From positions 32,001-96,000 of IMG/VR virus record IMGVR_UViG_3300028549_001457: a DNA stretch of 64,000 bases; one strand, written 5' to 3'. The DNA is from a virus. Its lineage: Duplodnaviria > Caudoviricetes. A program made the translations under genes and the position numbers. Positions 8,379 to 49,600 of the stretch are shown here, in pieces; position 1 is the stretch's first letter, and each line of letters opens with the position of its first letter. Below the pieces are notes generated by a model. It ran no database searches. It was not told the DNA's origin and worked only from the letters and a program-made list of their open reading frames with translations.

Positions 8379-11300
8379 CCGTAAAAAAGCTTACAAAGGT
8401 GTCTGAACACCCTACTCAGATGAGTAGCTGTGATCGTTTATGCTTCACATCTGCTTCTGGTGGCGTCCTATTTTGGGTTGCGTATATTGTTGAAGGGGGT
8501 CATTTAACCCTCTCCAAGTATTCTTTAGATGATCTAGCTAATTCTGCGAATCCAACCCCCCTTGGGACCCATAGAATTTTGTCTAAAGTTGCTCGTTGGG
8601 CAAACCCAACACTCATTAAGTTAAATGACTCTCTGTTATATCTCATATATGAGTCCTCGACAGTCTACACAGCCCCTCGCAATCTATTTTATATTTCAAT
8701 TACGCTGTCTAATGGTATCCCCACGTTTGGGGAGCCTATTCAGATCGCTCAGAATCCAGGGTATTCTTTCCAGTATGACTGGTACTTAGATGCACAAGTT
8801 CATTTGGTGGTTGCCAACTTTTCGGGTGTCACCCATGATTGCCCCACGCTTCAGCATATTATTCTTGAAGGGTCCTCTTCAGATTTAATAACTTTGCCAC
8901 CGTCTACAAGTGTTTGTGGGTTAACATTTGCGTGTGATTCCTCCGGTTTGGCGACTCATATCATCTACGGGGCGGTTCAAAATTACTCGCAAAGCTATAT
9001 TTACCAACATTCGTTTTCGGGGACTTCTTTTGGACCTCAGGAGACGCTCACTAGCTCTACGCTCGAATTGGTTAATGATCTAACTTCCGTATCTATTGCA
9101 GGAACCCCCCTTATAATCTACAGCGCACTAACTTCAGGTAATCAGATAACCCCGCAGTTATATTATATCTTTGGGGGTGTTCACGCACCGCTAAAATTTA
9201 ATAGCGCTGAATCTGCAACTAATTTAAACCTCTTCCATGAGGATTCGTCTGGAAATTGTCTGTTTTATTTTGTAACCCATAATGTCTCTAGCCATCCACG
9301 GTCTTTATTCTATTGTAATGTCTCCTGTGATGGGGCTACTGTAGTTTTTTCTGATATTGAGTATAGACAGCCTTTTAATTCTAAAGTTTTAGGAGTGGCC
9401 TTTGGGGAGCCCATAGACTCAGTCTGGGCCGACCATACTAGGGCTGGAACCCTCCTACTTGACTATGACGCTTCAACCTCTCAGCTATGCTATTTTGATC
9501 CTCTTAAGGAAGGGGTTACTCTTTCAACATACCCCTTACTTGTCTCAGGCCATCCTCGTGGGTCTAGCTTCTTGATATCCTGCACAGAGGTTAACCCAGA
9601 AGGTCTTCATCTAGATTACTCCTGGGTTGTTGTTGAATCTGATGGGTCTCCGTGGTCTTTTGGGGACCCTGGGGTTTCCTTTGGATCTCCAAGTGCAGCA
9701 CAGACTCAAGTCTTCGTTGCCTCGGATGCCCCCGCCAACGTATATATCAAGCTTATCGCAAAAACAGGCTCTCACCAGTTTAGCTCCAATATTGTTACTA
9801 TCTCTATGGAGGCGCACAATCCACCTAGCATATCTGTCTTGGATGCCTCTACCGAGTGGCACACCCCCGTTAACCTAGATATATCTGTAACACACGCTCC
9901 GGATTACCCTGTTTCACTTACTGTTGATGGGTCTGGGATTCCATTTAAAGTGGCTCTTGGCGAGATTACTAGCAGATCCTTGTCACATACAGAAACTGTT
10001 TTTACGGTTCCCCTTACCCCCATACACCCTGATATCAATGGTGAGACTTTAACCTTTGTTGCCACCGCAAAGGAGTCTGTTGCTACTTCCACGATGTCTT
10101 TTCAGTTATCTATAGGGGCGCTACCCATATCCCTTCTAGGCTCAAAAACTCTCGTAAGATCGACCTACAACGGCACCCTCCGAACTGGAAATTATGGCCT
10201 AGGTTACTCCCTTAAAAATGCTACTGCACTGCCTTCGGACTTTACTAATGTGGTGCGATGCGTTCTGCCTTCAGGGGACTTCGCCTGGGCGTTTATGGGT
10301 TCTCATACTGTTCTTTGGGTTCTGGACTGGGACTCGGAGGAACACTGTTACTTAGTTAGTTACAAGGACATTCGTGATGTCGCCATAAACTCCTCAGGGT
10401 ATACAGGGGTTCTTACGGATGACTCTTTTATGGTATTTAACACCCGTGCGGGTATTACGGCTGATGATAGTCCAGATTCGTCTCTCTTCCCGATAAATTT
10501 CACATATCAAGATGTTCCAGACACTACTTATACTCTCGTAGCTCCTGCTTTAAATGCTGGGCTAAGGGTTTTTGCAACGGGAAACCCTCTAGTTTGGGTT
10601 ATAGCAACCTCCACGGCCCTCATATTTATATCAGTGGACCAGATGTCTTCTGAATTAATTGACCTAACCGATTTAGGGTGTGGGGAGGGCTCTCAGTTTA
10701 AGCACGTGGTCCCCCATAAGGTCGGTGGTCTTAGGGAGGGGGGTTTTCTAGTGGTAGTTCAGAACCCCTCTGGGGACGCTACGTGTATGCTTGTAGATTT
10801 GGCTACTAGGTCTACAAGTAAGGTTTGGCAGGGTCCTGAGCTTACTTCAAGTTACCTAACAACGGCAACTTTATTTGATTCTCCAGATCCCATAACCCCC
10901 ACACCTCCAGATCCTCCAGATCCTCCAGATCCTCCAGATCCACCGGACCCCGAAACATTATTTACTCTAGGAATCTGGGGTAATCTGCCCGACCAGTATC
11001 CCGGCTTAATGATTATCGAATTAGCCACACAGACGGGTGACGTAGCTCCACCAGTCACCATTGAATTGTATGTCAATCGTCCCTATAATTATGACAAACC
11101 TGTAACAATTGAACTCCCATTTGAGAATATTGAACAATCTGGAATTTCAATCTTTATTAATAGTCCAATTGCCGAAGAAGCCGGGGAGAATACAGGATAC
11201 TATGTAAACGAAGTTTATCAGGCTCTAGGAGATCCTAAAGCAGTTGTGATTCTAGGTCCAGAGGATTTTTCGATTCGAATGACTTTCAGAGATATTTATT

Positions 11301-11722
11301 CTCCGGATAGCTTTATTACTCATCTAGCTCCTATTTTATCATTTACGGGAATTGCAGGAGATCCGGGCGAAGAGATTGAACAGTCTACCTTTGTAGAGTG
11401 GATAATTCTAGATAATCCGCGTTATCTCTACCAAGGTACGAATCTAGCGGATTTCAAAGTAGTCTCAAATTTTGGTTCAGAACCTATTTGGTCAGTAGAT
11501 TTCAGAGCAGATGGAATTGGTTCTGAAATTGGAGACCCAGAAAACTATGATCAGTGGTTTGTTTTAACTTCCACCGTTGGAGAAGTAGTTACAGCCGATT
11601 ACAATTTTGGAGGTGGTTTAGATGGAACAGTTATCCAACTAACAGCTCAAAAATCCGGTAGTTGGTCGCATCCAGATGTAACTTACTCTTTCCCAATTAA
11701 CTGCGATATCATGTATGGGTAA
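8375..11722 (+). CDS. Large multidomain virion (head fibre/appendage-like) protein with a Pro-Asp linker
   Basis: 1115 aa, beta-rich, PKD/Ig-like segments, (PPD)n linker; ATGA overlap with the upstream gene. Confidence 0.5.
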   Translation: MTVKKLTKVSEHPTQMSSCDRLCFTSASGGVLFWVAYIVEGGHLTLSKYSLDDLANSANPTPLGTHRILSKVARWANPTLIKLNDSLLYLIYESSTVYTAPRNLFYISITLSNGIPTFGEPIQIAQNPGYSFQYDWYLDAQVHLVVANFSGVTHDCPTLQHIILEGSSSDLITLPPSTSVCGLTFACDSSGLATHIIYGAVQNYSQSYIYQHSFSGTSFGPQETLTSSTLELVNDLTSVSIAGTPLIIYSALTSGNQITPQLYYIFGGVHAPLKFNSAESATNLNLFHEDSSGNCLFYFVTHNVSSHPRSLFYCNVSCDGATVVFSDIEYRQPFNSKVLGVAFGEPIDSVWADHTRAGTLLLDYDASTSQLCYFDPLKEGVTLSTYPLLVSGHPRGSSFLISCTEVNPEGLHLDYSWVVVESDGSPWSFGDPGVSFGSPSAAQTQVFVASDAPANVYIKLIAKTGSHQFSSNIVTISMEAHNPPSISVLDASTEWHTPVNLDISVTHAPDYPVSLTVDGSGIPFKVALGEITSRSLSHTETVFTVPLTPIHPDINGETLTFVATAKESVATSTMSFQLSIGALPISLLGSKTLVRSTYNGTLRTGNYGLGYSLKNATALPSDFTNVVRCVLPSGDFAWAFMGSHTVLWVLDWDSEEHCYLVSYKDIRDVAINSSGYTGVLTDDSFMVFNTRAGITADDSPDSSLFPINFTYQDVPDTTYTLVAPALNAGLRVFATGNPLVWVIATSTALIFISVDQMSSELIDLTDLGCGEGSQFKHVVPHKVGGLREGGFLVVVQNPSGDATCMLVDLATRSTSKVWQGPELTSSYLTTATLFDSPDPITPTPPDPPDPPDPPDPPDPETLFTLGIWGNLPDQYPGLMIIELATQTGDVAPPVTIELYVNRPYNYDKPVTIELPFENIEQSGISIFINSPIAEEAGENTGYYVNEVYQALGDPKAVVILGPEDFSIRMTFRDIYSPDSFITHLAPILSFTGIAGDPGEEIEQSTFVEWIILDNPRYLYQGTNLADFKVVSNFGSEPIWSVDFRADGIGSEIGDPENYDQWFVLTSTVGEVVTADYNFGGGLDGTVIQLTAQKSGSWSHPDVTYSFPINCDIMYG
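10904..10951 (+). repeat. 9-bp tandem repeat CCTCCAGAT x4 plus a degenerate copy (PPDPPDPPDPPDP)
   Basis: Directly visible. Confidence 0.9.
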
Positions 11723-12933: not shown

Positions 12934-14203
12934 GTGTGGGATTTGCCTAAAATTCGCCATGAGCTTCTTCTTTTTAAGAAGAAACCTCAGCAGGCTGTTC
13001 TATCTCGGGACTTCCCTGAGTTACACGCGGCTATTTTAGCGATTACCTCGCATTTCCCAGAATGTGTGTCTTTTTCTCATAGGCTCCGACTAATTTTGGC
13101 AGGGGATATTGAGATTCCGGTTTGCCCCTTGTGTGGGGCTTTAACCTCATGGGTGCAGGGGCGCGAATGGTCCACATATTGTTCAAGGGTGTGTTCAATT
13201 AGGGCAAAATATGGAGTTGATAACTACTCTCAAGTTCCGGCTTTTAAGGAAAAACGAATTAAAACCAATCTATCCCGGTATGGCGTAAGCAATATATCGC
13301 AATTAAGGGTTACCCAAGACAAAATCAGACAAACATCTCTAAACACATTTGGGGTGCCACACCACCTTATGGCCTTTCAGTAAGATAATTAGCCTGGACT
13401 CTTCACTTCAGACGTCCGAACATTCAAGGATGCACCTAGATATGTATATACCTTCTCGGAGACTAGCTTTTGAGTATAATGGCCTTTACTGGCATTCTTC
13501 TCTTCAAGAGTGTATGTATCCTGGGTATCACCTTGATAAGACGCTTGAGGCCGAGCGCCTAGGGATTCGCCTAGTCCATATTTGGTCAGACGATTGGATC
13601 CTTAAACCAGAGATCATGCAGGCTAAAATAAGGTCACTCTTAAATATAAAACCCCCCTCCACGGTGTATGCTAGAAATTGTGCTGTAATGGTTCCGACTG
13701 CATTGCAGAAACAGGAGTTCTATCAGAAGAATCATATCAAAGGGGATGGCGCTGGGAGGGTCTCATATGCGCTTCAAGCCTCTGACATGTCTATTGTAGC
13801 CATGGCTACGTTTAAGGTTCTCGGTGAAGGTGTCTTTGATTTAAATCGTTTTGCGGTGGACATTTCAACACACGTACCTGGGGCCTTTAGTAAGCTTTTA
13901 GCTCATTTTAAACGAAATAACGACTGGACCTCCATAACAACCTATGCAGACAGGTCCTGGTCGCAAGGAAATGTCTACAAAGTTTCAGGCTTTACCTTGG
14001 CTCACACTACTCCTCCAGCATTCCATGGTCTTGAGTATGGGTTTTCCCAACGTGTATCTCGTAGGGCCTACACTCATGCACGACTAGCCAGCAGGTTTCC
14101 CCAGTCATATGACCCCACAAAAACGCAGCTAGAGAATATGGATTTGGCAGGGGTCCCCGTGATATATGATTGTGGCAATTATGCTTTCACTTTAAGTAGG
14201 TAG
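12934..14203 (+). pseudogene. Hef-like endonuclease gene (Zn finger, YGVxN repeats, PD-(D/E)xK-like domain, Mom-like GNAT domain) split into ORFs 12934..13383 and 13349..14203
   Basis: CPLCG...YCSRVC, KYGVDNYSQ, RYGVSNISQ in ORF1; LDMYIP..LAFEYNGLYWHS, NHIKG, LNRFA, TYADRSWS, IYDCG in ORF2; frames differ by +1 at about 13380. Confidence 0.7.
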
Positions 14204-14210
14204 GTATTCT

Positions 14211-15545
14211 TTGGATATATTCACTCCAAATCCTTTAAGTCTACAGCTCATTCCCGCATGGGATAGCCAAGCTGTAGATTTAGTTTGGAAGGTTAGTAAA
14301 GATCCACTAGTAGTGGGCTATCATGTTTGGAGAGCGCAAAATGCGCCTTCCAACTTCGTAAAAATTACAGATATCCCCCTTCAGACACCTTTCTTTAGGG
14401 ATGTTACCAGGATTCTCCCTGCAACGGATGTTCCCACCCAATGGGTGAGCCCACCCAATTCAGGCAATGGCGTTATAGCTGTTCGTGCCAGCAAAGTCCC
14501 TTTAGTGCGCCCCTCATTGGATTCTGCCAATAAACCTATGCTAGCCTCGGCAATGGACGTCCGTGTGTTTGAGGCAGGTTCCCCAGGTTCCCCCTATCAG
14601 ATTGAGAGAGTCGATCCTCATTCAGGTTTAATTATGTTTGGCAGTCGCTCGATACTCAATGAGTCCTGCGATTTTAGAGAGGCGGTTCCCACCCCTGTAA
14701 GCCTAGGAGAGCTAACCATTAATTACTTTTACGTAGATAGGTTCACTGACTCAATGTTTGGGCGTGATCTTTACTACAAAGTGGTCGAGGTTTTTGCAGA
14801 TGGGTCCGAGGGAGATCTGAGCGCCTACCCTCCGATATCCAATTTAAGCCTCGATCCAGGCGATATTTTCTGGCGTGAGGCTATGCGTAGAAATCGTTTT
14901 ATCTTTGAACAGGTTGGTGAGCCTGCATACGTGCTTCTGCGAAAATCAACTGGAAAGTTATGCTCTTGCGTGGATACGGACACCTTGAAACCCCGAACTA
15001 CATGTATGGCTTGTTGGGGGGTTGGGTATGAAGGTGGGTATGACGGGCCGTATCCCATTACGTTTACTCCTCCAAATGCAGCATCCCATACCAAACAAGG
15101 GCCAGATGGTCGATTTAAGACACGGTCTGCCCAGTCTTTTATTGGACCCTCTCCCATATTATCTTCTGGCGACCTCCTGTTTAGATTTACGGGGGAGCGG
15201 CTAGTCGTTCTAGATGTGGAACGAACTTCCGTTAGGGGTACCACCCTCCAGCAAACTTACACAGCGGATTTAATTAATCCCGCTGATTTTAGGAATAAAA
15301 TTCAAATAACTAATAAAAACTACCCAATTATTGCTATAAGTACGGATAGACCGGCCCCTAGAAATACGGATAACTCATTCGAAGACCCCATTCCCGCGAA
15401 TATTTCTTTACTTGAGGGTGTTTCTTCTATAGAAGTCTCTGATCCAGCGCTCGATTCTACACAAATTGAAAATCAAATACCTGGGAATCTTAGAGAGAAT
15501 ACCCTTCCTTCCGTGTCCCCCGTGTTTGAAAATTGGTCTTTTTGA
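14211..15545 (+). CDS. Head closure / neck protein with an FN3-like N-terminus and a Cys motif
   Basis: VDLVWK..DPLVVGYHVWR (FN3-like); LCSC...CMACWGVGYEGGY; position. Confidence 0.55.
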   Translation: MDIFTPNPLSLQLIPAWDSQAVDLVWKVSKDPLVVGYHVWRAQNAPSNFVKITDIPLQTPFFRDVTRILPATDVPTQWVSPPNSGNGVIAVRASKVPLVRPSLDSANKPMLASAMDVRVFEAGSPGSPYQIERVDPHSGLIMFGSRSILNESCDFREAVPTPVSLGELTINYFYVDRFTDSMFGRDLYYKVVEVFADGSEGDLSAYPPISNLSLDPGDIFWREAMRRNRFIFEQVGEPAYVLLRKSTGKLCSCVDTDTLKPRTTCMACWGVGYEGGYDGPYPITFTPPNAASHTKQGPDGRFKTRSAQSFIGPSPILSSGDLLFRFTGERLVVLDVERTSVRGTTLQQTYTADLINPADFRNKIQITNKNYPIIAISTDRPAPRNTDNSFEDPIPANISLLEGVSSIEVSDPALDSTQIENQIPGNLRENTLPSVSPVFENWSF

Positions 15546-15552
15546 GGTTCCC

Positions 15553-16638
15553 ATGACTTACTTTGACGAAGATGCTCTTTATGAAGCTCGTCAGACAGCT
15601 TATGATTGGCACGGGGGGCAGTGGTCCCCCTTGTATTCATTTGCCTCTAGTGGCACAATCACATCCAAGGGCTCTCTCTTAGGTGAGATTGATAGTTGTA
15701 TTGCTTCGGCTACAATGCGTCCAGAACACTTTGATTCTAACGAACTCATAAAATTGCAGGAGTTACGGGCTTTTGTTGAATCGTCCCCCGAGACAGATGA
15801 GGATTCAGATGAGAGCGCCCCATCAAAGTCTGTTACAGGGTCCCTTCATGATGCTGAGGTTTCTGTTCCAGTAGTTTCAAAAGCTCTCACCATTTTAAGT
15901 GATGAAGTTCTCCCAGCGCTGCAGACAAATCCTACTTTTAGTAAGTATATGCCAAGGCTTACTACTCTTAAAAATAGACTCGCGCTGGCGTTATCTGTTG
16001 TTTCTGAAAACGAGGACGTTTTCACCCCCGAGGAGCAACGTTCTTTTGAGCCACTTGTAGAGGCTGTTCTAATATTAAGGCAGGCCCTCCGAGCCAAACA
16101 AAAACCCACTTCGCCCATGGTGGAGGATGTCATTCATGGCTTTCATGACGTCTACGTGGCTGCTGTCCGTCGATTACAGGCTTCCTTACCCACCCCCGAG
16201 CGATTTAGAACGGCTTCTAAAAAGGTTTCTATGAATCAGGAAGATTTCATCCAAGATACTCCCAAGATCCTGGGTACGCCAGGGAAGGACCCAGACACTA
16301 CTAATTTCTTTGATGATCGTGAACTCTTTAGAAAATTTTATTCTCAATTTTATGAGGGAGCTGTCCTGATTGCCGATGACGGGACCTATTATCAAGTGCT
16401 AGAGCTAGTGACTACTTCGGGTAACTTTGTTGCAATGATGCAGGATGTTCTTCACCCTCAAATTGTATTTACCATTAGCGTTAATGATCTAGTCGCCCAC
16501 ACCTGGAAGTGGGTATCTCCTTTTGATGTGGTGGTTAACCCAGATCTAGCTCCCAGTCAGGTTTCTTCTATTGCTGATCTTGTGTCCGTAGGCGATCTTG
16601 AGAAACCAGAAATTCCAGAACGCTGGCTATCCTATTAG
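15553..16638 (+). CDS. Modular hypothetical protein, possibly internal head
   Basis: Likely start ATG 15553 with GAGG RBS (track ORF starts at 15466); DWHGGQWSPLYSFASSG module; RTASKK linker. Confidence 0.6.
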   Translation: MTYFDEDALYEARQTAYDWHGGQWSPLYSFASSGTITSKGSLLGEIDSCIASATMRPEHFDSNELIKLQELRAFVESSPETDEDSDESAPSKSVTGSLHDAEVSVPVVSKALTILSDEVLPALQTNPTFSKYMPRLTTLKNRLALALSVVSENEDVFTPEEQRSFEPLVEAVLILRQALRAKQKPTSPMVEDVIHGFHDVYVAAVRRLQASLPTPERFRTASKKVSMNQEDFIQDTPKILGTPGKDPDTTNFFDDRELFRKFYSQFYEGAVLIADDGTYYQVLELVTTSGNFVAMMQDVLHPQIVFTISVNDLVAHTWKWVSPFDVVVNPDLAPSQVSSIADLVSVGDLEKPEIPERWLSY

Positions 16639-16653
16639 TATTTATTTAACAAT

Positions 16654-16692
16654 GAAAAGTGGCTCTCTTTTAAAGGGGGCCACTTTTATTTT
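16654..16692 (+). terminator. Terminator AAAAGTGGC...GCCACTTTT
   Basis: Inverted repeat with T-tail after the 16638 stop. Confidence 0.7.
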
Positions 16693-16758
16693 TGTATCTA
16701 TTTAAGGGTTCTTTAATGGTATATCCCAGAAGTTGTTCCGTTTTTTGTTTTTGATAGT

Positions 16759-17856
16759 ATGTCCAACCTATTCATCCTTGACTCTTCGACTATGCCCGTA
16801 GCATTGTTGGGGGGCTTACAGAAGGGAATCAATATGTCTTCAAATTTTAAACAGGGTCGCGGCCTAGATGTAGGGACTGGGCTTATTATTGCTGCTTCTG
16901 GCAACCCTCAGGGGATCGCCTACCGCGAGTTTAGAAATGCCTATGTAGCCATTCCCGACGAGAATAGGGCGATGCTTGAATTGACAGGGACCCCCTTTAT
17001 TGAAGTTGGGGATCAGGTTTTTGCTGTAGGGGATGATGCAGTTGATTTGGCTTTCAATACCCACGCTGAAATCCATCGACCCATGGCCAAGGGGCTAATT
17101 CACCCTAGCGATATAAAAGCCAAGCCTGTGCTAACAGCTATCTTCGACGCACTTCTTGGAGCCCCCGTTAAATCTGGAGAACCTGTATTCTTCTCAACTC
17201 CAGCAGATCCTGAGGGGTCCTCTGGGGCTAATATTTATCACTCTAAATTAATTAGTGAGATTCTTCTGAATATGGGTTTTGACCCCAAGCCTGTTATTGA
17301 GGGGGTGGCTGTTTGTTATGCAGAAGGCCGAGAGGATAAGTTTACTGCGCTAACTATCAGTTGGGGGGCAGGCATGTGCAACGTTGCCCTTTGCTACAAA
17401 TCCCTCCCCGTCTTTACACTTTCTGTTGCTCAAGGTGGTGACTGGATTGATGCTCAGTCTGCCAAAGCTTCTGGAGTTCCCACTCAGGATATCACTGTTT
17501 TGAAAGAACAGGGTGTCATAGATGTTTCAACAGGCCTGTGCTTGAGTGATCTAACAGATCAACAGAAACGGGAAGCTGAGGCAATCAGTACCCACTATGA
17601 ACATCTCGTAAGAACCGTAATTCAGACCATTAAGGTTTTTATTGAGTCTAATCCCACACGCCGTGTTAATATCCCTGAAGTTCCTATTATTCTTTCTGGT
17701 GGGACCGCCAAAGCTGTGAACTTTCAAAAGTTGTTCGAGCGTGTTTGGGCAGAATGTAATATGCCTTTAAATGCAAAGTCCTTTAGACTGGCTGAGCCCG
17801 TTCAACATGCTGTTGCAAAGGGACTCTTTCTATATAGCCAGTTGCAGAAACGATAA
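16759..17856 (+). CDS. Actin-fold ATPase (Mad28/MamK/ParM-like)
   Basis: Phosphate-1 GLDVGT, connect-1 IEGVAV, phosphate-2-like ISWGAGMCNV, GGDWID, adenosine motif ILSGGTA, connect-2 AVAKG; start may be ATG 16834. Confidence 0.8.
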   Translation: MSNLFILDSSTMPVALLGGLQKGINMSSNFKQGRGLDVGTGLIIAASGNPQGIAYREFRNAYVAIPDENRAMLELTGTPFIEVGDQVFAVGDDAVDLAFNTHAEIHRPMAKGLIHPSDIKAKPVLTAIFDALLGAPVKSGEPVFFSTPADPEGSSGANIYHSKLISEILLNMGFDPKPVIEGVAVCYAEGREDKFTALTISWGAGMCNVALCYKSLPVFTLSVAQGGDWIDAQSAKASGVPTQDITVLKEQGVIDVSTGLCLSDLTDQQKREAEAISTHYEHLVRTVIQTIKVFIESNPTRRVNIPEVPIILSGGTAKAVNFQKLFERVWAECNMPLNAKSFRLAEPVQHAVAKGLFLYSQLQKR

Positions 17857-17871
17857 CCAATTTGATTATCT

Positions 17872-17908
17872 AGAAAAAGCACCCCTTTTTACAGGGGTGC
17901 TTTTTTCT
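17872..17908 (+). terminator. Bidirectional-type terminator AAAAAGCACCCCT...AGGGGTGCTTTTT
   Basis: 13-bp inverted repeat after the actin-like gene. Confidence 0.85.
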
Positions 17909-17970
17909 GTAGTCCCTGCAACCCACGTAGCCCCACCTACGGTAGAAAACCCTTTATGTAGGAGTCCTTC

Positions 17971-19551
17971 GTGCCCATTTTTTTGGATCAAACGCTTAGA
18001 AAAGCATTATTATCTAAAATACGAGACTCTTTTGGTCGAGACGAAGGTTTGGCAGGTAGGGTTCGTGTATTGGATCAGGAAACCTTTCTCCCAGAAGCCG
18101 AGAATCAAGTTATTATGACGGATCTTCAGGTTGCAAATGAGTCCCTCGACGCTTCCAATAGAGTTACTGAGCTATCTGGCAGAGTTACCTTTGCCCCTCT
18201 TACCCGGCCAGACACATCGTTTCTTTTCTGGGCTCAAGAAAACCCAGAAGAACCCCAAATTATGGATCACGGGTTTTATGAGTTAACCCTTCATAAGGTG
18301 GCTTTACAGACACCCTCCCCCTCTGCCCCAGACACTTCCTGGGAACTTCAGGTAGAGGCAATTAAGCGAGTTACCGAAAAGCGTCAGCCGTGGTCAGGTC
18401 TTAGGATAGTGTTAGGACCCTCCGTAGATCTATCTACAGTGTCTATGTCCGATTTAACTATTCGTCAAAGTGTCATCACCCTGGAACCTCACACGGATTT
18501 TTCCCTGGTCTCTGACACCCTGTATCTAAAACGATATGACCCACATACGTATATTTTATACAAGGGTGTTGATATTACAGATGAGTGCAGCTTTCTTGAA
18601 CTGGTATCTAACGAGTTGACATTTACCACAATAGCTCCTCCCATACAGTTGCCCGAGGGCGTTTGTTTAGAATCCGTTTCCGTGTTCAATCTTACTCTTA
18701 ACAGGCCCCTCTCTAAGGGCTGGAGTGTTACTCAAAGCGGTAAGCTTATTTGGGATCTCCCCACACATAGAGGAACCTCTGTTCTCATCCAATATTACCA
18801 GAAAACCCCTCTTAGAATGTGGGATTTGCCCAAAGAATTTCAGTTTCCATTAGAGTCCACCCCACTAACCTATTCCACAGGTAAGTCTTCTCTTCTAGTT
18901 GTCTCCAATTTGCGCGGTGCCCTGGATCCTTCCACCTACGAGATCCGCAACCTAGTATTGCGTATTTTAGAACCTCTTCCTAATGAAGCACTTACTGTAG
19001 ATTATAGATTCCATTTTAAATCTCTAGGTCAGTTCCGGGTGGATCCAGCTAGCATTACCTGTCAGATAATCCCTGGCATCAGCCTAACGTTTACGGACAA
19101 CTTTTCTGATGGCGACAGAGCCGTTGTAATTAAACATGATCAGGTAAAAAACATAGGGCAAGAGAATGGTGGGACCAATAAGGTTGAGCTATCTCTAAAA
19201 TTGAGGTCCGCTGATGACCTAACACTTGAGAGAATGACCGCCAGGGTTTTCTTTTTATTTACAGACCAAATAAGTTTATTTGAGTTAACTAACCAAGGGG
19301 TTAGTCTAGAGAACTCAGTTTCCTACGCACGTTCTTATGAAGAGCGTGATGGCAACGCTGATAAGTGGGCTGTAAATACCTTTAGGTTGACCATTCATCA
19401 TACTTGGAGATATCTCATCCCCTATGTTTCAGATTTAAACACCCTAGATTTAGCCACAGGTTTCATTGAAGTTTCCGGGGATACTGGTGCTCCAACCTTT
19501 AGGGAGTTAATTGTTTCAACCACAAAAGATTCATGGATTCAGGCTTACTAG
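17971..19551 (+). CDS. Tail completion / terminator-like protein with a large central insertion
   Basis: Position before the sheath; N- and C-terminal terminator-like segments (VELSLKLRSADDLTLERM...FRLTIHHTWRY). Confidence 0.45.
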   Translation: MPIFLDQTLRKALLSKIRDSFGRDEGLAGRVRVLDQETFLPEAENQVIMTDLQVANESLDASNRVTELSGRVTFAPLTRPDTSFLFWAQENPEEPQIMDHGFYELTLHKVALQTPSPSAPDTSWELQVEAIKRVTEKRQPWSGLRIVLGPSVDLSTVSMSDLTIRQSVITLEPHTDFSLVSDTLYLKRYDPHTYILYKGVDITDECSFLELVSNELTFTTIAPPIQLPEGVCLESVSVFNLTLNRPLSKGWSVTQSGKLIWDLPTHRGTSVLIQYYQKTPLRMWDLPKEFQFPLESTPLTYSTGKSSLLVVSNLRGALDPSTYEIRNLVLRILEPLPNEALTVDYRFHFKSLGQFRVDPASITCQIIPGISLTFTDNFSDGDRAVVIKHDQVKNIGQENGGTNKVELSLKLRSADDLTLERMTARVFFLFTDQISLFELTNQGVSLENSVSYARSYEERDGNADKWAVNTFRLTIHHTWRYLIPYVSDLNTLDLATGFIEVSGDTGAPTFRELIVSTTKDSWIQAY

Positions 19552-19560
19552 GAGGACACC

Positions 19561-19926
19561 TTGCCCCTGATCGAATTCATTTGCCCTCAATGTAGTCTAG
19601 CTTGGGCTCATAGGTCCCCAACTATTTCTAGTGAACATAATACCCAGGTTTGCAAAAGGTGTGGAGCTACTGTAGCAAGACAGGGGCTTCCTTCCTCTCT
19701 TGCTATTCAAAGGGCCGGGACAGCATCTGCTACTACGGACCATATTGTTGGACAAGATGCCGCTCAACGCTGGGATGAGTTCCATGGGAAAAAAGAGGCT
19801 AGGGACTCCATCCGTAAAGAACTAGGGACACAGGCACTCTCCCAGACCTCTGATGGGACGTTTACGGCTGCTTCCCAAGAGCGTCTACAAACGCGCAAGC
19901 AAGCATATAAATTCCTAAATGAATAA
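19561..19926 (+). CDS. FmdB-like zinc-ribbon protein with a helical C-terminus
   Basis: MPLIEFICPQC...CKRCG; GGAGG RBS. Confidence 0.65.
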   Translation: MPLIEFICPQCSLAWAHRSPTISSEHNTQVCKRCGATVARQGLPSSLAIQRAGTASATTDHIVGQDAAQRWDEFHGKKEARDSIRKELGTQALSQTSDGTFTAASQERLQTRKQAYKFLNE

Positions 19927-25550: not shown

Positions 25551-25589
25551 TATATTAAAAAGCCCCACTAAGTGGGGCTTTTTAATATA
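25551..25589 (+). terminator. Perfect 18-bp stem bidirectional terminator
   Basis: TATATTAAAAAGCCCCAC-taa-GTGGGGCTTTTTAATATA. Confidence 0.9.
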
Positions 25590-26360: not shown

Positions 26361-27041
26361 ATGCCACTGGATACTGGATATCTATTCCGCCAAGGGGCAA
26401 ACGGCCAAACCAAAACCGTGACCTCGCAGCGCAACCGAATTTACTCCCCTCACGTTGGACAAACTGGTCTTAGGATTATTGGCGTCCTAGGTGACTTTAA
26501 GGTTAATGAGAGCCGTAAGATTGATACTGTTCGTGGTATTGGTTTTGGGGATCAGATTGCCGAGTTGGTTCCCGGAAACACGGATGCCACCAAGATCTCA
26601 GTTACTCGTACGGCCCTGTATCTCCAGAACCTCATGCAGACTTTTGGGTATAAGGCAGGCTCCTCGGGCCTTGTTCGCTCTCTTAAACATCACAAGTGGC
26701 CCTTTGACATCCGTCAGGAAATTGTTTTCTCCGAGATTGCTTCTGAGGCACAGGATGCTGGGCAGTCCCAAAGGTGGGCTCCTGAGAACCCTGAGGGTGG
26801 TTTAAATAACACGGGTGATACAGGTGATATCCGTGCGATTTTCACGATCTTTGAGGGATGCTGGATGGATTCTTATGACTACACATTTAATAATGAAAAC
26901 GTGGTTGTCACTGAGAATTGCGGCATTCAGGTCAGTGACATCTTTGATGGTAATGACTCTGTCTATGGCATGTTCCTAGACAGCGGAAACAATAAATCTG
27001 ATGCAACAGGTCGTTCCATGAGATTCTCCGGGAATAACTAA
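26361..27041 (+). CDS. Tail tube protein
   Basis: IGVLGDFKVNESRKIDTVRGIG...ELVPG; WPFDIRQ; FEGCWMDSYDY...TENCGIQV; RBS identical to the sheath RBS. Confidence 0.85.
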   Translation: MPLDTGYLFRQGANGQTKTVTSQRNRIYSPHVGQTGLRIIGVLGDFKVNESRKIDTVRGIGFGDQIAELVPGNTDATKISVTRTALYLQNLMQTFGYKAGSSGLVRSLKHHKWPFDIRQEIVFSEIASEAQDAGQSQRWAPENPEGGLNNTGDTGDIRAIFTIFEGCWMDSYDYTFNNENVVVTENCGIQVSDIFDGNDSVYGMFLDSGNNKSDATGRSMRFSGNN

Positions 27042-27469: not shown

Positions 27470-29222
27470 TTTTTTCGGTATATTGATAGAGAGGTTGTTT
27501 AACTTGTTCATACAGCCAGAGTGTCAAGAGTTATCTTTTGAGACAGCAGGACTCACTTGGTATCTAAAAAACCGTCCCTTTTTTGAGACAGCAACCTTTT
27601 TAGCTGATCATCAAGGTGATCTAATACTGAGTAAAATAGCGGCTAAGGTCTCGGGGGTGTCTGGTGGGTCCTCCAGACATCAGCTTTCTCCAGAACAAGC
27701 TCGGTTGGTTATTTCTAAGCTAACAGCACCTCAGCTCATGGAACTGGATTTAAAATTTAAAAAAGCCGTTACTAAATTCATAAAGAGAGATCTTTCGTTT
27801 GTTGTACCGGCTCCATTAGGGCTTCCTCATTGGAAGCAGCCTCTGGCCGCTAAGGATCGCCTTTCTTCCGAGAACAGAGGTCTTCTGGATCATGCCATAC
27901 AGAAGGCTCATCATGAGCTACGCAACCCCGATCTAGCTAAATCTAGAGCACTATCTAACTTTGAGACTGTACAGCGAGGTTTAGTTAAAGCAAAGCAAGA
28001 GGAGGCAGATCGCCAAGAGGATCCAACACGGGCGTATGGAGATCTCTACCCAATGAGTGATCAATCTTCGCCTTCGCCCCTTAAGCACACCCAGGAGGTT
28101 AAAGAGCGTTTGTTCGTGTTATCGGATACACTTCAGCTTCTCTGGCCGATTATTTCCAGTAATCTCTTAACACTTCATGGGACCTGGGCGGGGAACTCTG
28201 TTGCGCTACGCTATGTGAGCAAGAAGGAAATTCTAGCTTTAAACCAAATGGTTTCTACGCAGTCTGTTAGGGAGCGGTTATTTTGTGCAATGTCTATTGT
28301 TTCCATAAATGATACGTGGTGTCTATCATCATCTACTCATGTAAACCCTCTGGCACTCAGCGTGGTAGATAGCTGGGCTGAGGAAGACCTATCAAGATTT
28401 TATGATATCTTTTCAGGTATTCGATCCTTCGCAGAATCTCTAATGCCCTATATTGAAGCTCTGCCCTTTACTAAGCTTTTTAGAGATTTCTGGGACCTTA
28501 ATCGTGGTAGGGATAGGTGGTGGCAAGAATGCTACACAGGTGTCCCAGGGACAGGGACACTTCCCCCCTCTGAGCACATTGATCTTTTCTCCCAGGAATG
28601 TCTCCTTGATGAAACAGCGGTTGGGAAGATTGAGGCCGATGATACTCTTTCTTTCCAAGTAGCTGGTATGAGTCATGAATTAGCTCAGGGGATTCAGAAG
28701 AAAAACACTGAGTTAGTTGAGGCCAGAGGCCTGCAGATTAATTATATGTTGTTCAATGAGGTGCCTGAAATTAAGGAAACGCAGGAGGGCGTCCTAGCTC
28801 TTCCCGGAGAGACCAGTAGGGATGAGATCATCTCCGTTGCTCAGGATATGCTTCAGGGTAAGATGGATTTCCACGATACTATGTTAGCTGTTATGCGCCA
28901 GCGCAAGGAGGCCATGCAAACAACCTCCTTCGCGCCCCCTGAGCCCCTTCCAGCCCCTGCAAGTGATGCTGACGCCTACGAGGGTGGGTCCCATTATGCA
29001 ACGTCTCAGGAAATCCAGGAGATGCATCGAGCTTCCACTGCACATAGGGTGGCTGTGGATAACATCACTCTGGCGTTCTCTCAGGATGTTGTTGAAAATA
29101 TTGCTAAGGCTAGGAAACGAAGCCTTCTCATCCAGGGCGTAGATCCCTACCACGAAAGGGACGAATCTGAGGACCTTGGGAGGGCCTCGTTGATTAGTAG
29201 GGATAAGTCCTATAGAGAATGA
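27363..29222 (+). CDS. Putative tail assembly chaperone-like protein (true start probably about 27459-27504)
   Basis: Between tube and tape measure; helical; CAMSIVSIND segment resembles NVLCQLND in the next ORF. Confidence 0.4.
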   Translation: MVQWLVLAPYLRLCPRRRINPKPLVQILLLLRMTSNFFGILIERLFNLFIQPECQELSFETAGLTWYLKNRPFFETATFLADHQGDLILSKIAAKVSGVSGGSSRHQLSPEQARLVISKLTAPQLMELDLKFKKAVTKFIKRDLSFVVPAPLGLPHWKQPLAAKDRLSSENRGLLDHAIQKAHHELRNPDLAKSRALSNFETVQRGLVKAKQEEADRQEDPTRAYGDLYPMSDQSSPSPLKHTQEVKERLFVLSDTLQLLWPIISSNLLTLHGTWAGNSVALRYVSKKEILALNQMVSTQSVRERLFCAMSIVSINDTWCLSSSTHVNPLALSVVDSWAEEDLSRFYDIFSGIRSFAESLMPYIEALPFTKLFRDFWDLNRGRDRWWQECYTGVPGTGTLPPSEHIDLFSQECLLDETAVGKIEADDTLSFQVAGMSHELAQGIQKKNTELVEARGLQINYMLFNEVPEIKETQEGVLALPGETSRDEIISVAQDMLQGKMDFHDTMLAVMRQRKEAMQTTSFAPPEPLPAPASDADAYEGGSHYATSQEIQEMHRASTAHRVAVDNITLAFSQDVVENIAKARKRSLLIQGVDPYHERDESEDLGRASLISRDKSYRE

Positions 29223-29258
29223 ATTCCTTAACCGCCTTTTTACAGGGAGACTACTTAA

Positions 29259-29927
29259 ATGGATCGCACCGTTTCTTTGCCCATGGATCTTTTGGAGACC
29301 TTGGAACAGCATTTACACGCAGGTATGGATTCCACCAAGCTCTTTGAGGTGGCCCCTGGATTTTCTGTAGCATTTAGAACCCTTACAGGGGAGGAAGAGA
29401 TTGAGTGCAGAACTTCCGCCGCTGAATTTAGGGGACCCGCGTATATTTACACGTATAAGACAAAAGTCCTCTCCAATGTTCTTTGCCAGCTTAACGATAT
29501 TAAGCTACCCCCAAGTGCTACAATTAAGATGCCCAAGAAGCGCACAGATGATCTAGGTAGGGTGGAGGAGATTCTTACAGACGTCCCCCTAGCATCTCAT
29601 CTAGAGGGGATCATTCTCACCTGGAGTAAGGGCCTCATTGACATTTGCTTTAAGCTTTGGTCAAAGCATCAAGAAGAGCAGCTCTATAAGTATATCGCTC
29701 CGTTTAACCAGGATGATCTCTTTACGGTTGAAGAGAAAATGCTAGCTAAAGAATATGAACAACTTCTAAATGAGAATAACTCTGCAACGGCTGCTATGAC
29801 ACCCTCTGAATTAGTGGTTGCTGTTCAGAACACGACCCCCGGCTCAGACCTCGTTAAAATTGGGGCTCAGGTAACCAAGCATGTAGACCCTCATATTGAT
29901 TTTAGTGAAGAGGCTGAAGAGAAATAG
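29259..29927 (+). CDS. Tail assembly chaperone
   Basis: FRTLTGEEE...KVLSNVLCQLND; directly before the tape measure gene. Confidence 0.55.
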   Translation: MDRTVSLPMDLLETLEQHLHAGMDSTKLFEVAPGFSVAFRTLTGEEEIECRTSAAEFRGPAYIYTYKTKVLSNVLCQLNDIKLPPSATIKMPKKRTDDLGRVEEILTDVPLASHLEGIILTWSKGLIDICFKLWSKHQEEQLYKYIAPFNQDDLFTVEEKMLAKEYEQLLNENNSATAAMTPSELVVAVQNTTPGSDLVKIGAQVTKHVDPHIDFSEEAEEK

Positions 29928-37132: not shown

Positions 37133-40100
37133 ATGGATGGCAAGTCAAAAGATACGTATACAATCCCACGCTCATACCCAGGGACTCCTATACCGGATAC
37201 AGATGCAGGTGGCGCTCCTTCAGGTGTGCTTGCAGACCCTGTAACTAAAGATGCCCCTTCCACTAAAGAGTTTACGCCCACCGCTGCAAAGCCCATGTAT
37301 GACTTTTTCTTTTCCGAGGTGTTCCAGCAGCTACCAAAGCTACGATTAGCTCCTGATCTTTTAGTCTATGTTAATAGGGCTAGAACCATCACTACATGGA
37401 CGGGGATTTCTTTTGATATAAACGACTGGTTGGTTTCAGCAAATGGCGGGTCCGGTATGGATCGCCAGCACATGTGTACTCTATCATTTTATGTCCCACG
37501 ACACCTTGAGACCTTATTTATTGGGTTAGGGGGCCGCTTTGTTCTTCGCCCGTTTCATGAGATTGAGGTTTATGCTAAGGGACGGTTCCTTGTTGACGGT
37601 AAAACTTTGGCTACTTCGGATGCAGAGCTATACGGGGATTATTTAGACCCCTCTGATCCGGATATCCCCACGGCTAGGTATTACCGAATTTACTGGGGGT
37701 ATGTTGCCTCCATCACTTCTGAATGGCTTGAGGGAGATTACCAATATACCATTCAGTGTGCTCCAATTCTTCGACTGTTTGACCTAACGCACTTACGTCA
37801 GAGTAGCACCGCCATGTCTGCTGCAGGGACCCAGACGGGGATATCTGCCCATGGCAACCCTGGCATGGTAGGGAACCCGCTTCAGATTATTCTAGCCGTA
37901 TACAATAGAGAAGTGGGTGTTTTAGAGGAGTTGAATACTACCACTTTTACGGATGGCACAAATAACGTTGCCCCGTCTTTGAGGGATTCAAATAGCTACC
38001 GGAGGCTGGCTGGTAGAGCCTTTGCTACATGGCAGGCTAGGCTTGAGGAAGTGAAAAAACGGACTACATTCTACGGGCTAGCCTACCGAGACCCTGTTAC
38101 GTTAGAGCTAACCACGGATAAGTTGGATTTCTATAAACTCTTGAGTAAGGAGGCTGGCAGAGACCCCATGTCTACCATCCCCGTGAATGTGTCAAACGGA
38201 ACTCAAGTAGGGCCTTATGATGGGTCCTTTCAGGATAGGCATATGGGTTTTAGCTTTTGCCTCCAAGACTTTGCTATGGCTAATTTCTCACCCTTCTTTC
38301 CTATTAGTCAGTTTCAGCTATTTCACTTGAACGAGAACACCAAGCGTGGGGAAATTCTAGCGCAAATGGCTGATCTAATGGGTTATGAGTTCTATCAAGA
38401 TTTAAATGGTAATGTTATTTTTAAGCCGCCTTTCTATAATATGGACGTTCGTTCAGATGCTGTATTTAATATCAATGATATTGATATCCTTTCTGAACAA
38501 CTAATCGAAGATGAGTCCCAGATAACTACTACAAATGCTCTTGTAATGGGGAGTAAGCATGACATGATCCAGAATTCTATGTCGAAGGATGTTCGCCCCC
38601 AAGCTCAGGCAATAGACCTCCGACTTCTGGCTAAGTATGGTCAGCGTTTTAAACAAATTGAATTACCAATGCTGCGAAATCCTCAGGAATGCTATGCCTA
38701 CGCAGTTATATCAATGGCAAAAGAAAATCGACGATTCACTCAGATTAACATTCAAATACCCGCTAGACCTGAGTTAATGCTCGGGTTCCCTGTTTACCTC
38801 CAGGGTAGAGACTGTTTTGGGTATCTAGAACGCATTCAGTGGTCCTACTCAGCGGGGAACGACTTTACGTTTAGTCTGTCCCTTACTAGTGTGCGTAGGC
38901 GAATGTATATGGATAAATCTAGGTATAAGTGGATTATGGGTAGTCGTATGCGGGATGTACTCAAAGATCCCAGCTCTAACGAACCCACCCCCACCACCGA
39001 AGCTTCTAAAACTCCCGTTCAGAGTGCCGAAAAATCAAACGCGGAACCAGCAGATAAACCTAAAGCTAGTGATAAGGCTGTTGTTAAGACCCCTTCTAAT
39101 CCCCTAAACTTATACACAGAGTTAATTAGGGTTGCCTCCTCCAAGGTTGGAGTGGGAGGGGAGGATACTAGTCAGGACCCCGCTGTAAACGCCTTTAGAC
39201 ATGCTGTATGGGGGGATGCAACAAAGGGAACAGAGCAATGGTGTATGGCTTTTGCTCAGTATTGTGTTGCAGAGGTCGCCAACATTCATGATAAAGCCTC
39301 TACGTTGCCAGTGACAGGGGGGTCTCAAGATGCTTTTAATTTAGCAGTCCAGCGTTTTCCAAAATACGCGATTTCTGCATCTGAATTTATGCATAATTCT
39401 GATAAAGCCAGCCGGGTGGGGCCTGGGTGGATTATTATCTGGAGACACAATAAACCCCCCACTCCAGGGGCTGGTCATACCAGTATTGTTCAAACAATCC
39501 ATGATAACCGAAAAACCTGCACTTCTATAGATGGGAACGCTGCGGGGGGTAAAGTGGTGGTCAATAGGCCACGCACACTTCCTTTTCAGCCGAATCCCAA
39601 TAAGGAATACCCGTATGATCTTGAGTTAGTTGGGTTCATAGATCCCTGGGGCGTTGGTGGCGTAAAACCCGCAGCCCCTCATGCTCTCACAAGTGATTCT
39701 ACTAGTGGGGTTCCCTTTGATTCGGGAACATTATACTCCCGCAATGCAGCCTCATGGAGTTCTTCCGGTGCTCCTGGGCGAGACGCTTCCAAGAAAGATC
39801 TCCTAGATCTAGTCCCGTTAGCTAATGCAGTGCTACAAACGTTCCCTCCTTCCGTAAAGGCCGTTGAGGACGATACGTCAACTGAAAAAGAACGGGGTGA
39901 TGCCGAGAAGGTCGCTGTTTCAGAAGGTCGCGGGAAGGCTCTCGATAAAGCTGCTGCAACTATTCAAGCCAAGGAACAGGCTCTCCTAGAAGCTCAGGCG
40001 GCATTTAAGGTAGCGAAGGAGGCAGCGGATGCTAAAAAGCTGCAATTAGATACTGAATTAAGTGACGCGCTTCAGTATGAGGCAACCCTCATGACCGCTA

Positions 40101-46681: not shown

Positions 46682-49600
46682 ATGAATGCTCCCATTATTA
46701 AGTCTCCTGCGCTACTCCCAGGCTCCCTGGATTACACAGAGATTACAAGCCCAAATCTCAATCTGGTCATTCAAACACCGCCAACTGCCGTGTTTGTTCA
46801 AGCAGTTGTGCAGGGGGAGCAGGCCGCTACATTCCAGTCGAATCTTCTTCTTTTTACTCCGCCTTATATCTCAGGTGCTTCCGATCATTTCTTCTCCCTT
46901 GATATCGCGCTAGGGGCTAAGAATAACACTGTTATAATCAACTATTTTAATACCTACCCGAGTGACACTCCCGCAAATCTTGCCTCTGCCAAATCACCCG
47001 ATGCAGAAATCCGTCTTTTTCTAGATCAAACAAGTTCCCTCATAACCCCTCCAGCACCTCCATCGGGTTTTGATATTGCTCAAAGAGCTGTTGAAGTAAG
47101 GGTCACGTGGGACAAAACATTAGATGATGATTACATAGGGTCCAATTTCTATTTAGCTTCTTCCTCAGGTGGGCCTTATTATAAAGTTAATACCGCCCTC
47201 CTGACAGCGTTGGACCCCTCATCGACTACAAATCGTTTGTTGTTTAATATCCCTATTTCGGCACTTCCAGCAGAGTATGTTGGCACCGCAGATACTGCGG
47301 CTCAGCCATTTTATGCCGTAGCAACCAATGTTATTCAGGCTCAATCTGGGATTATCATGGAATCTCCATATTCCATGGAATTCGAGATCAAATTCTATAA
47401 TTTCCCTACCATTTATACGTCCCCTCTAAATAGGTCTCAACAAGAGGTGCAGGTTAGCCTGCTCAACTCAATACACAGCTACGACTTACAGCATGATTTA
47501 AAACCAGGATCAATCCTCCAAGATGTGTTTGTAAACCCTGTATCTACAGAGCTGGCTAGGGTTTACCAGAGAATGCACTTCTACCATTATGCTGGGTTTA
47601 TTTCGACCCTCCTTAAGTATGAGGATGAAAATGGAGATGGCTTCACTGACACCTTAGCTCAATCCCCTCTCCGCCAAACTCTTCAACAGGCTTTTAGCCT
47701 ATCCTCAGCAACTGAGGTTCAGAATTGGATTGACGATGCGTTTGACCGCTTGGCATCTAAATTCTATGCTCAGCGAGAAGGGTCTAAGTCAGCTAGTGGT
47801 AGGGTTACTTTTTATACTAAAGCTAAGCCAACTCAGACTATCGTAATACCCTTGGGTACAATCGTGTCCTCAGAAAGTTCCCTGCTCAGCGGAGCAACTC
47901 CAGTCTCTTATGTAACTACTGAAACTGGGAGCATCCCTTTGGATTCAATCGGGTCCTACTATAATGCTGATTTAGCTAGATGGGAACTTCAAGTCAGTGT
48001 CGTAGCACAGCAAGCAGGGTCTGCCGGGAATGCTTCTGCGGGGACCGTTAGCTCGGTATCCGGGCTTCCTGGGTCCTTTAAAGTTGTTAACGAATTAAAT
48101 CTCTTTGGTGGCGCTGATGCGGAGTCTAATCTTAATCTAGCCGCTAGATTAAGAAATACATATTTGTCTCGTGATCCTGGAAGACGGGTTGGTATTCAGG
48201 CTTGGATGTCTAAAGTTCCAGGCATCTATAGTTGTAAAGTAGTTGCAGCATCGGATAAATATATGATGCGTGACTATGATAGCGTTCGTAAATTGCATGT
48301 ATATGGTCGTGCGGATGCTTATGTAGATTCCAGGGCGTCTTCCGAAAAGACTCAAACTCTTGTTGTGGCACCCGTAGCCATTTCTAGCCTTGATGCGACA
48401 ACAACTGTAACTGCCTCCAACATTACTTCCTCAGACTGGGCGTTTACTATACAAGACTATCGACTCACCTCTGAAACCCCTGTATATCAAGTCTTACAGG
48501 TTAGAAATGTTAGTAAGAGTATCGATTATAACATCTCCACATGGAGTTCTAGCCTAGCTACAACAGGCTCCATTACAATTCATTTGGACCCCTCCCTTCA
48601 AACTGGGCTCTCTTCAGGTAGTGTTACACCTTCTGCAACGGATACCCTCCAGATTATCGTGAGGATTCTCTCAAACACGGGGTTTGAGTTTAACTACCAG
48701 CCCGTTCTATCTGTCAACTCTCTAGAAGGTGAGGATATTAGTCTTGGAGGGGCTGGGAGTATTGACGTTTCTTCTACTTTAATCGTAGAAACCCAGGACC
48801 CACTTGGGATCGGGGGGTCTGTTAGAGACGATAAACGTCTATACATTATCCCTAAAATTGAGTCTCATATAGAGCCTTTCACATTTCCTTCCGCAGATCC
48901 CCTAAACCCTTCTGCACCTATTATCTACACCGCGTCCACCCCAGGTGTTGTCCCCTTTTCTGTGGGGGTCCCTACATTAGTGGACACCCTAAACCCCAGC
49001 CTTATCTTGATTGAGGGAACCCATTATACCCTTCAAATGACTGATGACCAGAGGCTTAGGGTTATCAAAGCTCCAGCACTATCCTCTATCGGGGCGTATG
49101 AGCTGACCTATCAAGCCTATCAAGTTTTCCCCCGAAAATTTAAGGTTATAGCGGAACCCTTGGTTCTTTCAGGAACCACCCCAACATACCTCATGAACGT
49201 GGGTGTTAATCCAGACCCCTCCACTCTTGTGGTTCATACGGATATTCTCGGAACTAATACTCTGGTTCGTGGTGTTCATTATAGTGTGACGCCCTACGAT
49301 GATACGACTGTGGTTGCCGCAGCATCTACGAGTGGATCCAGTAGCCCATATGACTCTGACTATTGGGCGGCTAGTCCTTCTTTATTATCTAGTCTGTCCT
49401 CCTCGCAAGCTTCCGACCTAACAAGCGCAACGGGTATTATTAACTCTAATCTGGCCCTGCTTCCTGATGGGTCTACTGTGTATGTGGATTATGAATACTA
49501 CGAAAATATAACCTGCAAGTATTCTGTTGATCAGGGTGTCATTGACGCGCAGGCTTACGCGGATACACAAAAGAACTGCACGATGAACCTACTGGTAAAG

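Follow-up and report, generated by a model that had tools for sequence, protein, structure and literature searches.

Why would a jumbo phage encode an actin, and keep the gene among those that build its particle? The question is raised by a 64,000-nucleotide (nt) stretch of viral DNA, hereafter the window, which spans bases 32001-96000 of the 278,785-bp IMG/VR virus record IMGVR_UViG_3300028549_001457 (95% complete by CheckV). The genome, of about 279 kb, is that of an uncultured jumbo phage; the stretch is present in microbial-mat DNA runs from more than one study, and no RNA runs are among the listed datasets that carry it. What is known of phage-built cytoskeletons comes mainly from tubulins (PhuZ and TubZ) and from a single prophage actin, AlpC. 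A first-pass annotation of the window had described a stand-alone, Mad28/MamK-like actin-fold ATPase and had proposed that it forms a cytoskeleton with which the phage traffics capsids, tails, or DNA or assembles its virions, a role that is plausible. Here, we assign this protein (P0001, 340 amino acids [aa]) to the volactin family, describe the conservation of its gene among giant phages, and propose, with moderate confidence, that it is a volactin-type actin that is made in the infected cell and organizes a late step of the infection via filaments.

Family, active site, and fold

P0001 matches the Pfam Volactin family (PF25216) with 205.3 bits (cut-off of 35) over model positions 3-316 of 321, and its E value of 2.2e-60 places the match far outside chance. 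The same result was obtained in a scan of the whole phage genome, and among the control genomes the family exceeded its cut-off only in Haloferax volcanii. P0001 also aligns with a family member from Haloferax gibbonsii at 35% identity (E value of 2e-68). Hence, we regard it as virtually certain that P0001 is an actin-fold member of the volactin family. Membership in other actin families was considered and rejected. P0001 has no match to the NCBIfam MamK model NF040964 (cut-off of 400 bits), to which its volactin relatives score 24-39 bits. It falls below the cut-offs of MreB/Mbl (Pfam PF06723, 23.3 bits versus 27; NCBIfam NF010539, 18.3 versus 293) and of FtsA (Pfam, 15.8 bits versus 31.8), and it has no NCBIfam FtsA match; the name FtsA given to haloarchaeal relatives in some databases is a naming habit that corresponds to no family match. 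A ParM-type protein of a type II ParMRC system is rejected by an ALP_N score of 17.3 bits (cut-off of 26.3), with neither a repeat array nor a ParR-like neighbor. No match to P0001 was found among the PHROG profiles, among the Hsp70 and kinase families of Pfam and NCBIfam, or in the PDB using phmmer with the single sequence. When a sequence profile was compared with the PDB, the closest solved structure was MamK, a remote match (E value of 1.2e-9, 41 bits). The earlier description as "MamK-like" is thus wrong for the family, which is Volactin, and right for the nearest solved structure by sequence (E value of about 1e-9). The sequence strings quoted in the first-pass annotation (NAYV, RPM..GLI, EG.AV.Y.E, ISWGAGMCNV, GGDWID, and PIILSGGT) all occur in the translation of P0001; a full-text literature search for GGDWID-type strings returned nothing relevant.

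The nucleotide-binding site is well preserved. In an alignment of 32 sequences, the invariant positions include D12-x-G14-T15 (phosphate 1), E156, S176-x-G178-x-G180 (phosphate 2), G289-G290 (adenosine), and G330 (connect 2). The glutamate E156 aligns with that of the "VSEPFM" stretch of MamK, and all these positions, together with the string GGDWID (residues 201-206), are invariant across phage, planctomycete, and haloarchaeal members. The five nucleotide-binding motifs are all retained in P0001, in agreement with the earlier claim that all the ATP motifs of the actin superfamily are present, with one substitution: the phosphate-2 aspartate of canonical actins is replaced by serine in P0001 and in the whole family. 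The AlphaFold2 (AF2) model built from the 32-row alignment has an actin fold, with a mean predicted local distance difference test (pLDDT) score of 90.8 and a predicted template-modeling (TM) score of 0.88. Foldseek searches of the PDB with this model retrieved MreB, MamK, BeeR, crenactin, actin, and FtsA at TM scores of about 0.6-0.73 and identities of 14-19% (0.66-0.73 for MreB and MamK; 0.70-0.73 for MamK), and the best 50 matches are actin-fold proteins, nearly all of them filament formers. The PF25216 match, the predicted fold, and the Foldseek results together support the call of an intact actin-fold ATPase.

We placed the coding start at ATG 16834, with AGAAGGG 8 nt upstream, within an open frame that runs from 16759 to 17856 on the plus strand. 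This is the most likely start because the resulting 340-aa protein is identical to P0001 as called in the database, with an N terminus that agrees with those of all the homologues. The limits first given to the gene, 16693..17908, were too wide and took in both flanks; a 115-aa open reading frame (ORF) at 17771-18118, which overlaps the end of the actin gene, looks spurious. Synonymous sites are saturated relative to the three nearest relatives, and the nonsynonymous divergence (dN) is 0.14-0.43, with the lowest value for the closest of them. The actin is at least as conserved as every neighbor in its block (81% identity versus 68-80%). To judge from these substitutions, the gene is under strong purifying selection.

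Relatives and the virion gene block

The actin of the window belongs to a small and divergent clade of 12 members with 51-81% identity, 11 of which are metagenomic proteins; the next matches are at about 36%. Beyond this clade, a pattern search derived from the family alignment retrieved 347 IMG/VR contigs, many of 200-435 kb, and GenBank contains two uncultured huge phages (485 and 595 kb) with relatives. Cellular relatives were found in 526 species genomes, and the best 80 of these 526 are all from Halobacteria or Planctomycetota, with identities of at most 38%. Tandem pairs of volactin-family genes occur in metagenome-assembled genomes of Planctomycetota (loci L136, L148, L155, L160, L162, and L166; L-numbers designate the relative loci that we fetched) and in one haloarchaeon (L103). 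The second planctomycete copies form their own subclade with a support of 100, and in 17 of the 20 planctomycete loci the actin is preceded by a conserved gene of about 290 aa.

We fetched 80 of the IMG/VR contigs and compared gene order over 86 loci. The position of the actin is kept in most of the 80, with the succession c444, small proteins, actin, c526, Zn-ribbon, and sheath. Most of the 86 loci have the actin between c444 on one side and c526, Zn-ribbon, and sheath on the other, the commonest order being c444, c6, c4, actin, c526, Zn-ribbon, and sheath. The clusters of the neighboring genes have many members among the compared loci (27 for the 288-aa protein, 57 for the 444-aa, 61 for the 526-aa, 52 for the Zn-ribbon, and 60 for the 1068-aa), relatives of c444 lie upstream of the actin in 64 fetched loci, c526 is directly 3' of the actin in most related loci, and the Zn-ribbon gene always comes after c526. 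Three close relatives have the same neighbors in the same order on their contigs, and homologues of the window's neighbors are found beside the actin in a distant viral clade too. Four viral copies (L002, L009, L077, and L179) have other gene contexts, and none of the phage block genes was found in the cellular loci compared. In a separate set of 64 loci with both c444 and c526, the actin is present in 53, and 4 of the 11 loci without it retain c4 and c6. The pattern suggests that the block was inherited as a whole, together with the actin, in a large jumbo-phage lineage.

In a tree of 92 rows, whose base is unresolved, the window's clade forms one group on a long stem with 100% support. Further clades are purely viral (48 representatives, support of 99), planctomycete (99), and haloarchaeal (100); the haloarchaeal clade is placed beside the large viral one with a support of 89. 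Approximately unbiased (AU) tests rejected neither the grouping of all viral rows in one clade (p of 0.39) nor that of all cellular rows (p of 0.285); hence, we leave the direction of transfer unassigned. A recent capture from a host, without conservation in related phages, had been raised as a possible objection; the low identity to cellular proteins, the separate clade, and the synteny among phages all speak against it.

What are the genes around the actin? The statement that it is embedded in a neck/tail block holds at the regional scale, with a major head protein (1246-2121; phrog_2522, E value of 3e-43), a baseplate J protein (46682-50260; E value of 2.5e-18), and a probable sheath around it. 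The sheath candidate was recognized by a profile of its conserved C-terminal 460 aa, which matches the C-terminal domain of the phage 812/K sheath (5li2) with an E value of 0.0012. In relatives the probable sheath is followed by a conserved gene of about 216-278 aa, whose homologue here is at 26361-27041. Further downstream, a large protein (37133-41926) has a CHAP match below the cut-off, and there is also a weak match to a gp5-like spike. Closer to the actin, Pfam and PHROG scans of the block neighbors gave no or only weak matches. On the upstream side, c444 weakly matches phrog_1004, "virion structural protein" (E value of 1.2e-4), and chain 8q01_S of phage 812 (E value of 0.008), and its Atlas search returned unnamed viral clusters only. 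On the downstream side, c526 has no Pfam, PHROG, or PDB sequence match; its ESM Atlas leads are the SP10_terminator, Phage_tail_terminator_9, and T4-gp15 clusters (feature score of 0.88, TM score by target of 0.56-0.64). The actin is thus a gene of the virion block, and its place there is most likely between the neck side and the genes for tail terminator and sheath. The features are collected in Table 1.

Table 1. Features of the window in and around the actin locus
Feature	Position	Strand	Evidence
Volactin-family actin P0001, 340 aa	16834..17856	+	PF25216 205 bits; N termini of homologues; AF2 actin fold
Terminator-like hairpin after the stop of the 361-aa gene	16655..16687	+	15-pair stem with 6 G-C pairs, T-run; inverted repeat I5
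Terminator-like hairpin after the actin stop	17874..17905	+	13-nt arms 100% complementary; A-run before, T-run after
Clade-specific 361-aa protein P0121, candidate partner	15553..16638	+	Position of c6/c4 in other volactin phages
c444, 444 aa, probably a virion or neck protein	14211..15545	+	Conserved in block; weak matches; four invariant Cys
c526, 526 aa, probable tail terminator with an inserted domain	17971..19551	+	Atlas leads
Zinc-ribbon protein, 121 aa	19561..19926	+	Zn_ribbon_8, E value of 1.2e-4, below cut-off
Probable tail sheath, 1068 aa	19997..23203	+	C-terminal profile versus phage 812/K sheath

Some of these genes show features of their own. Four cysteines of c444 (C251, C253, C265, and C268) are invariant in 20 diverse relatives, which suggests a zinc site in this conserved virion protein. 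An HNH/homing endonuclease (12934-14203) is inserted between the 288-aa and 444-aa genes of the block, in two overlapping ORFs (12934-13383 and 13349-14203, the latter matching phrog_3339 with an E value of 1.8e-69) that are perhaps the result of a frameshift. Since the 288-aa and 444-aa genes are adjacent in L003 and L005, the endonuclease is a recent mobile insertion. In the locus L005, a gene of the 2',5' RNA ligase family (PF13563; 13051-13617) separates c526 from the Zn-ribbon gene. Directly after its actin, L005 has a 126-aa gene (11066-11446), and L006 too has a small gene there; no relative of the 126-aa gene occurs in this genome.

Expression, candidate partner, and proposed role

The actin gene of this clade is walled off by terminators. 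The upstream hairpin is the second strongest terminator-like structure in 15 kb, and the downstream one is a perfect inverted repeat followed by a T-run. In the close relatives L003 and L007 there are hairpins at both places with different letters, which argues that the signals have been kept by selection. A terminator on each side, as proposed earlier, is therefore well founded. The "promoter-like motifs" reported with them are not: a scan for sigma-70 promoters found no site in 16688-16833. By eye, one can make out a weak candidate upstream of the actin (TTGTTC, 16 nt, TG-n-TAGTAT), and the element TTTTTGTAT, common to relatives after the upstream terminator, occurs twice in the window, as expected by chance. 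Calling the gene monocistronic is a fair reading of the flanking terminators, to which the lack of a sigma-70 promoter between the upstream terminator and the start gives no help. Because of this insulation, the actin may have a dose or a timing of its own, independent of the neighboring genes. Elsewhere in the 15 kb, at 25551-25589, is the strongest hairpin of this type (18 pairs), after a pair of acidic proteins downstream of the probable sheath.

In the large clade, the protein encoded directly upstream of the actin is c4 (about 180-250 aa), which has a small N-terminal domain, a low-complexity linker, and a conserved C-terminal peptide (E-P-x-F-I-P-S ... D-D-A-A-x-A-L-K-x-L-R, then basic residues). 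As far as sequence can tell, c4 is constructed like an adaptor that carries a tail for docking. Hidden Markov models of c4 (whole protein, N-terminal domain, and C-terminal peptide) found nothing in the six frames of the 279-kb genome or in L003, L005, and L007 (best E value of 0.4). In this clade, the 361-aa protein P0121 is always just upstream of the actin, where others have c6/c4. The N-terminal part is of variable length; the C-terminal ~147 aa are conserved and have just nine relatives in the database, all apparently from this clade and on contigs whose lengths match those of the clade's actins. P0121 has no Pfam or PHROG match; VIA-align comparison with 48,161 chains returned only generic helical bundles (Z scores of at most 9.4), and comparison of its cluster (c54) with c4 and c6 using hhalign gave a probability of 0.3%, i.e., no detectable kinship. 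Its AF2 model is poor (pLDDT of 60), with a helical N-terminal part, a disordered linker, and a small beta domain, and its conserved tail ends in PERWLSY. Predictions of the complex between the actin and the C-terminal 147 aa of P0121, made without control runs, gave 0.60, 0.00, and 0.00. There is no parC-like repeat array within 15400-19700 and no ParR-like or DNA-binding family (Pfam and PHROG) among the neighbors. In this sense, the actin is "stand-alone," as the first-pass annotation had it; the term fits less well with the wider lineage, where the small c4 is usual upstream, and with this clade, where P0121 takes its place. Four IMG/VR loci (L183, L194, L208, and L249) keep c444, c6, c4, and c526 with no actin in between. 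Hence, c4 is not strictly tied to the actin, and it may also be a neck-side protein.

How could such an actin serve the phage? The host is a diderm bacterium, to judge from a TonB-dependent receptor encoded by the phage just before the window (record 27969-29825). The nearest named relatives of this receptor are from Holophagaceae/Geothrix (35-39% identity), followed by Bacteroidia (about 32%), too distant to name a host. We propose that inside such a cell the phage makes a volactin-family actin, together with the late genes, since the gene lies between the probable neck and tail-terminator genes. The protein would bind ATP and polymerize into dynamic filaments, like volactin, MamK, and ParM, as the family and the nearest structural relatives suggest; by this analogy, filament formation is likely. 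The filaments would then organize a late step in space, with capsids, tails, or the assembly zone being positioned or moved. No tubulin was found in the 279-kb genome, and the actin would fill the role that PhuZ plays in other jumbo phages. Since most of the related giant phages compared retain the gene at the same spot, they probably form actin filaments of their own. That the role is specifically one of late virion assembly or positioning we put forward only tentatively. We are equally cautious about an extended version, in which a large lineage of jumbo phages would long have inherited the volactin actin vertically as a component of its neck/tail assembly module, and an actin-based system would position heads and tails, join them, or marshal the finished particles. 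Under that version, past exchange might link the volactins of Halobacteria and Planctomycetota to those of the phages; the haloarchaeal clade does stand beside the largest phage clade, but the deep order of the tree is unresolved.

Several observations weigh against this proposal and give room to others. About one in six of the related phages lacks the actin, which is thus not required to build the particle. No partner or cargo of the actin was identified in this clade. The flanking genes were identified by weak matches, such that neck and tail terminator are to be read as probable. The terminators could mean that the actin is expressed at a different time from the surrounding late genes, and the serine of the phosphate-2 motif bears on the kinetics of the ATPase. 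This serine could also be expected of an actin-fold ATPase that does not polymerize, such as a chaperone that assists assembly or an enzyme from the acetate and sugar kinase/Hsc70/actin (ASKHA) superfamily. The actin fold is indeed also used by Hsp70 and sugar kinases, and a place between probable neck and terminator genes would fit an assembly factor. We find this quite improbable: by sequence and fold the protein is nearest to the filament formers MamK, MreB, BeeR, crenactin, and FtsA, it matches no Hsp70 or kinase family, and the only two characterized proteins with an S-x-G-x-G motif do polymerize, volactin in vivo and Mad28 in vitro.

Two further explanations accept the filaments and give them other tasks. 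The phage actin could reshape or enlarge the host cell, or block its division, and thereby raise the yield. Cell shape is where the one family member studied so far has its role, in the shape transitions of Haloferax (PMC10869688), Planctomycetota and Halobacteria retain cellular copies, some of them in tandem, the absence of the gene from one relative in six is what one might see for an accessory takeover gene, and insulation by terminators permits a timing of its own. Yet takeover genes are usually in early regions, and this gene has a position that was fixed in the virion block over a long divergence; the 340-aa protein has no evident membrane-binding helix or host-interaction domain, and the host probably has its own MreB. 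We therefore consider host remodeling unlikely. The filaments could instead move or anchor phage DNA, at replication sites or in a plasmid-like carrier state, through a DNA-binding adaptor, in the manner of ParM or AlpC. The known phage actin AlpC works in this way, with a co-transcribed adaptor (PMC4446434), and P0121 with its conserved tail could be such an adaptor. The absence of centromere-like repeats near the gene and of DNA-binding or ParR-like families among its neighbors, the ALP_N score below the cut-off, and the location among virion genes rather than replication genes make this rather unlikely too. Hence, filaments that organize a late step remain the explanation we favor.

If these proteins do polymerize, a large and widespread group of giant phages would run an actin-based system during particle assembly, which would provide a new model for how big viruses organize the bacterial cell. 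Volactin, studied so far in one archaeon, would gain hundreds of natural variants and partners to compare, and the gene flow among phages, Planctomycetota, and Halobacteria would become a question in itself. The divergent sublineage described here differs in its upstream protein and has terminators of its own, and it could help to show which parts of the system are essential.

Comparison with known systems

Our full-text literature searches returned no description of a volactin-type actin in phages; automatic database clusters do label such viral proteins "Volactin domain-containing." The member of the family studied so far is volactin (VolA, HVO_2015) of Haloferax volcanii, which forms dynamic filaments that span the cytoplasm and aids the rod-to-disk transition (Schiller et al. 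2024, PMC10869688). P0001 shares with it the PF25216 domain, the S-x-G-x-G and GGDWID motifs, and a similar length, with about 35% identity over the full length of the Haloferax proteins. It differs in being encoded by a phage in a virion block, in belonging to a separate deep clade, and in its neighbors, and the archaeal role in disk shape is inapplicable to it. The volactins of other huge phages (the 48 tree representatives, including LR745208.1) are 31-36% identical to P0001 and occupy the same place, between c444 and c526/Zn-ribbon/sheath. Unlike the window's clade, these phages carry c6 and c4, the latter with the FIPS ... ALKxLR peptide, and their actin genes abut or overlap their neighbors, whereas the gene of the window is flanked by terminators. 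Three things set this window apart: its divergent clade, an upstream protein that takes the place of c6 and c4, and terminators that insulate the gene.

Among the bacterial actins, MamK (PDB 5jyg and 5ljv) is the nearest solved structure by profile and shares the catalytic glutamate, but its identity is about 16% and it has the phosphate-2 aspartate where P0001 has serine. In this motif P0001 resembles Mad28, which has S-x-G-x-G, polymerizes in vitro, and is distinct from MamK (Awal et al., PMC10653835). The comparison, made with the published description of Mad28, covers this motif, and no Mad28 is among the named hits listed for P0001. Mad28 is larger (about 42.6 kDa versus the 37 kDa or so expected for P0001) and is encoded in the magnetosome island of deep-branching magnetotactic bacteria (PMC10653835, PMC12713370).

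Among the cytoskeletons of phages, AlpC of the Corynebacterium prophage CGP3 is the product of an early gene, whose filaments tie phage DNA for replication with the co-transcribed adaptor AlpA (PMC4446434). AlpC and P0001 are both phage-encoded actin-like proteins, and AlpC is a filament former. The gene of P0001, in contrast, is part of the virion block, and searches around it found neither an adaptor that binds DNA nor repeats that could serve as binding sites. The functional model is PhuZ, the tubulin whose spindle provides positioning and capsid delivery in nucleus-forming jumbo phages (PMC8314001, PMC7950403). PhuZ, too, is a cytoskeletal polymer of jumbo phages; it is a tubulin, whereas P0001 belongs to the actin superfamily.

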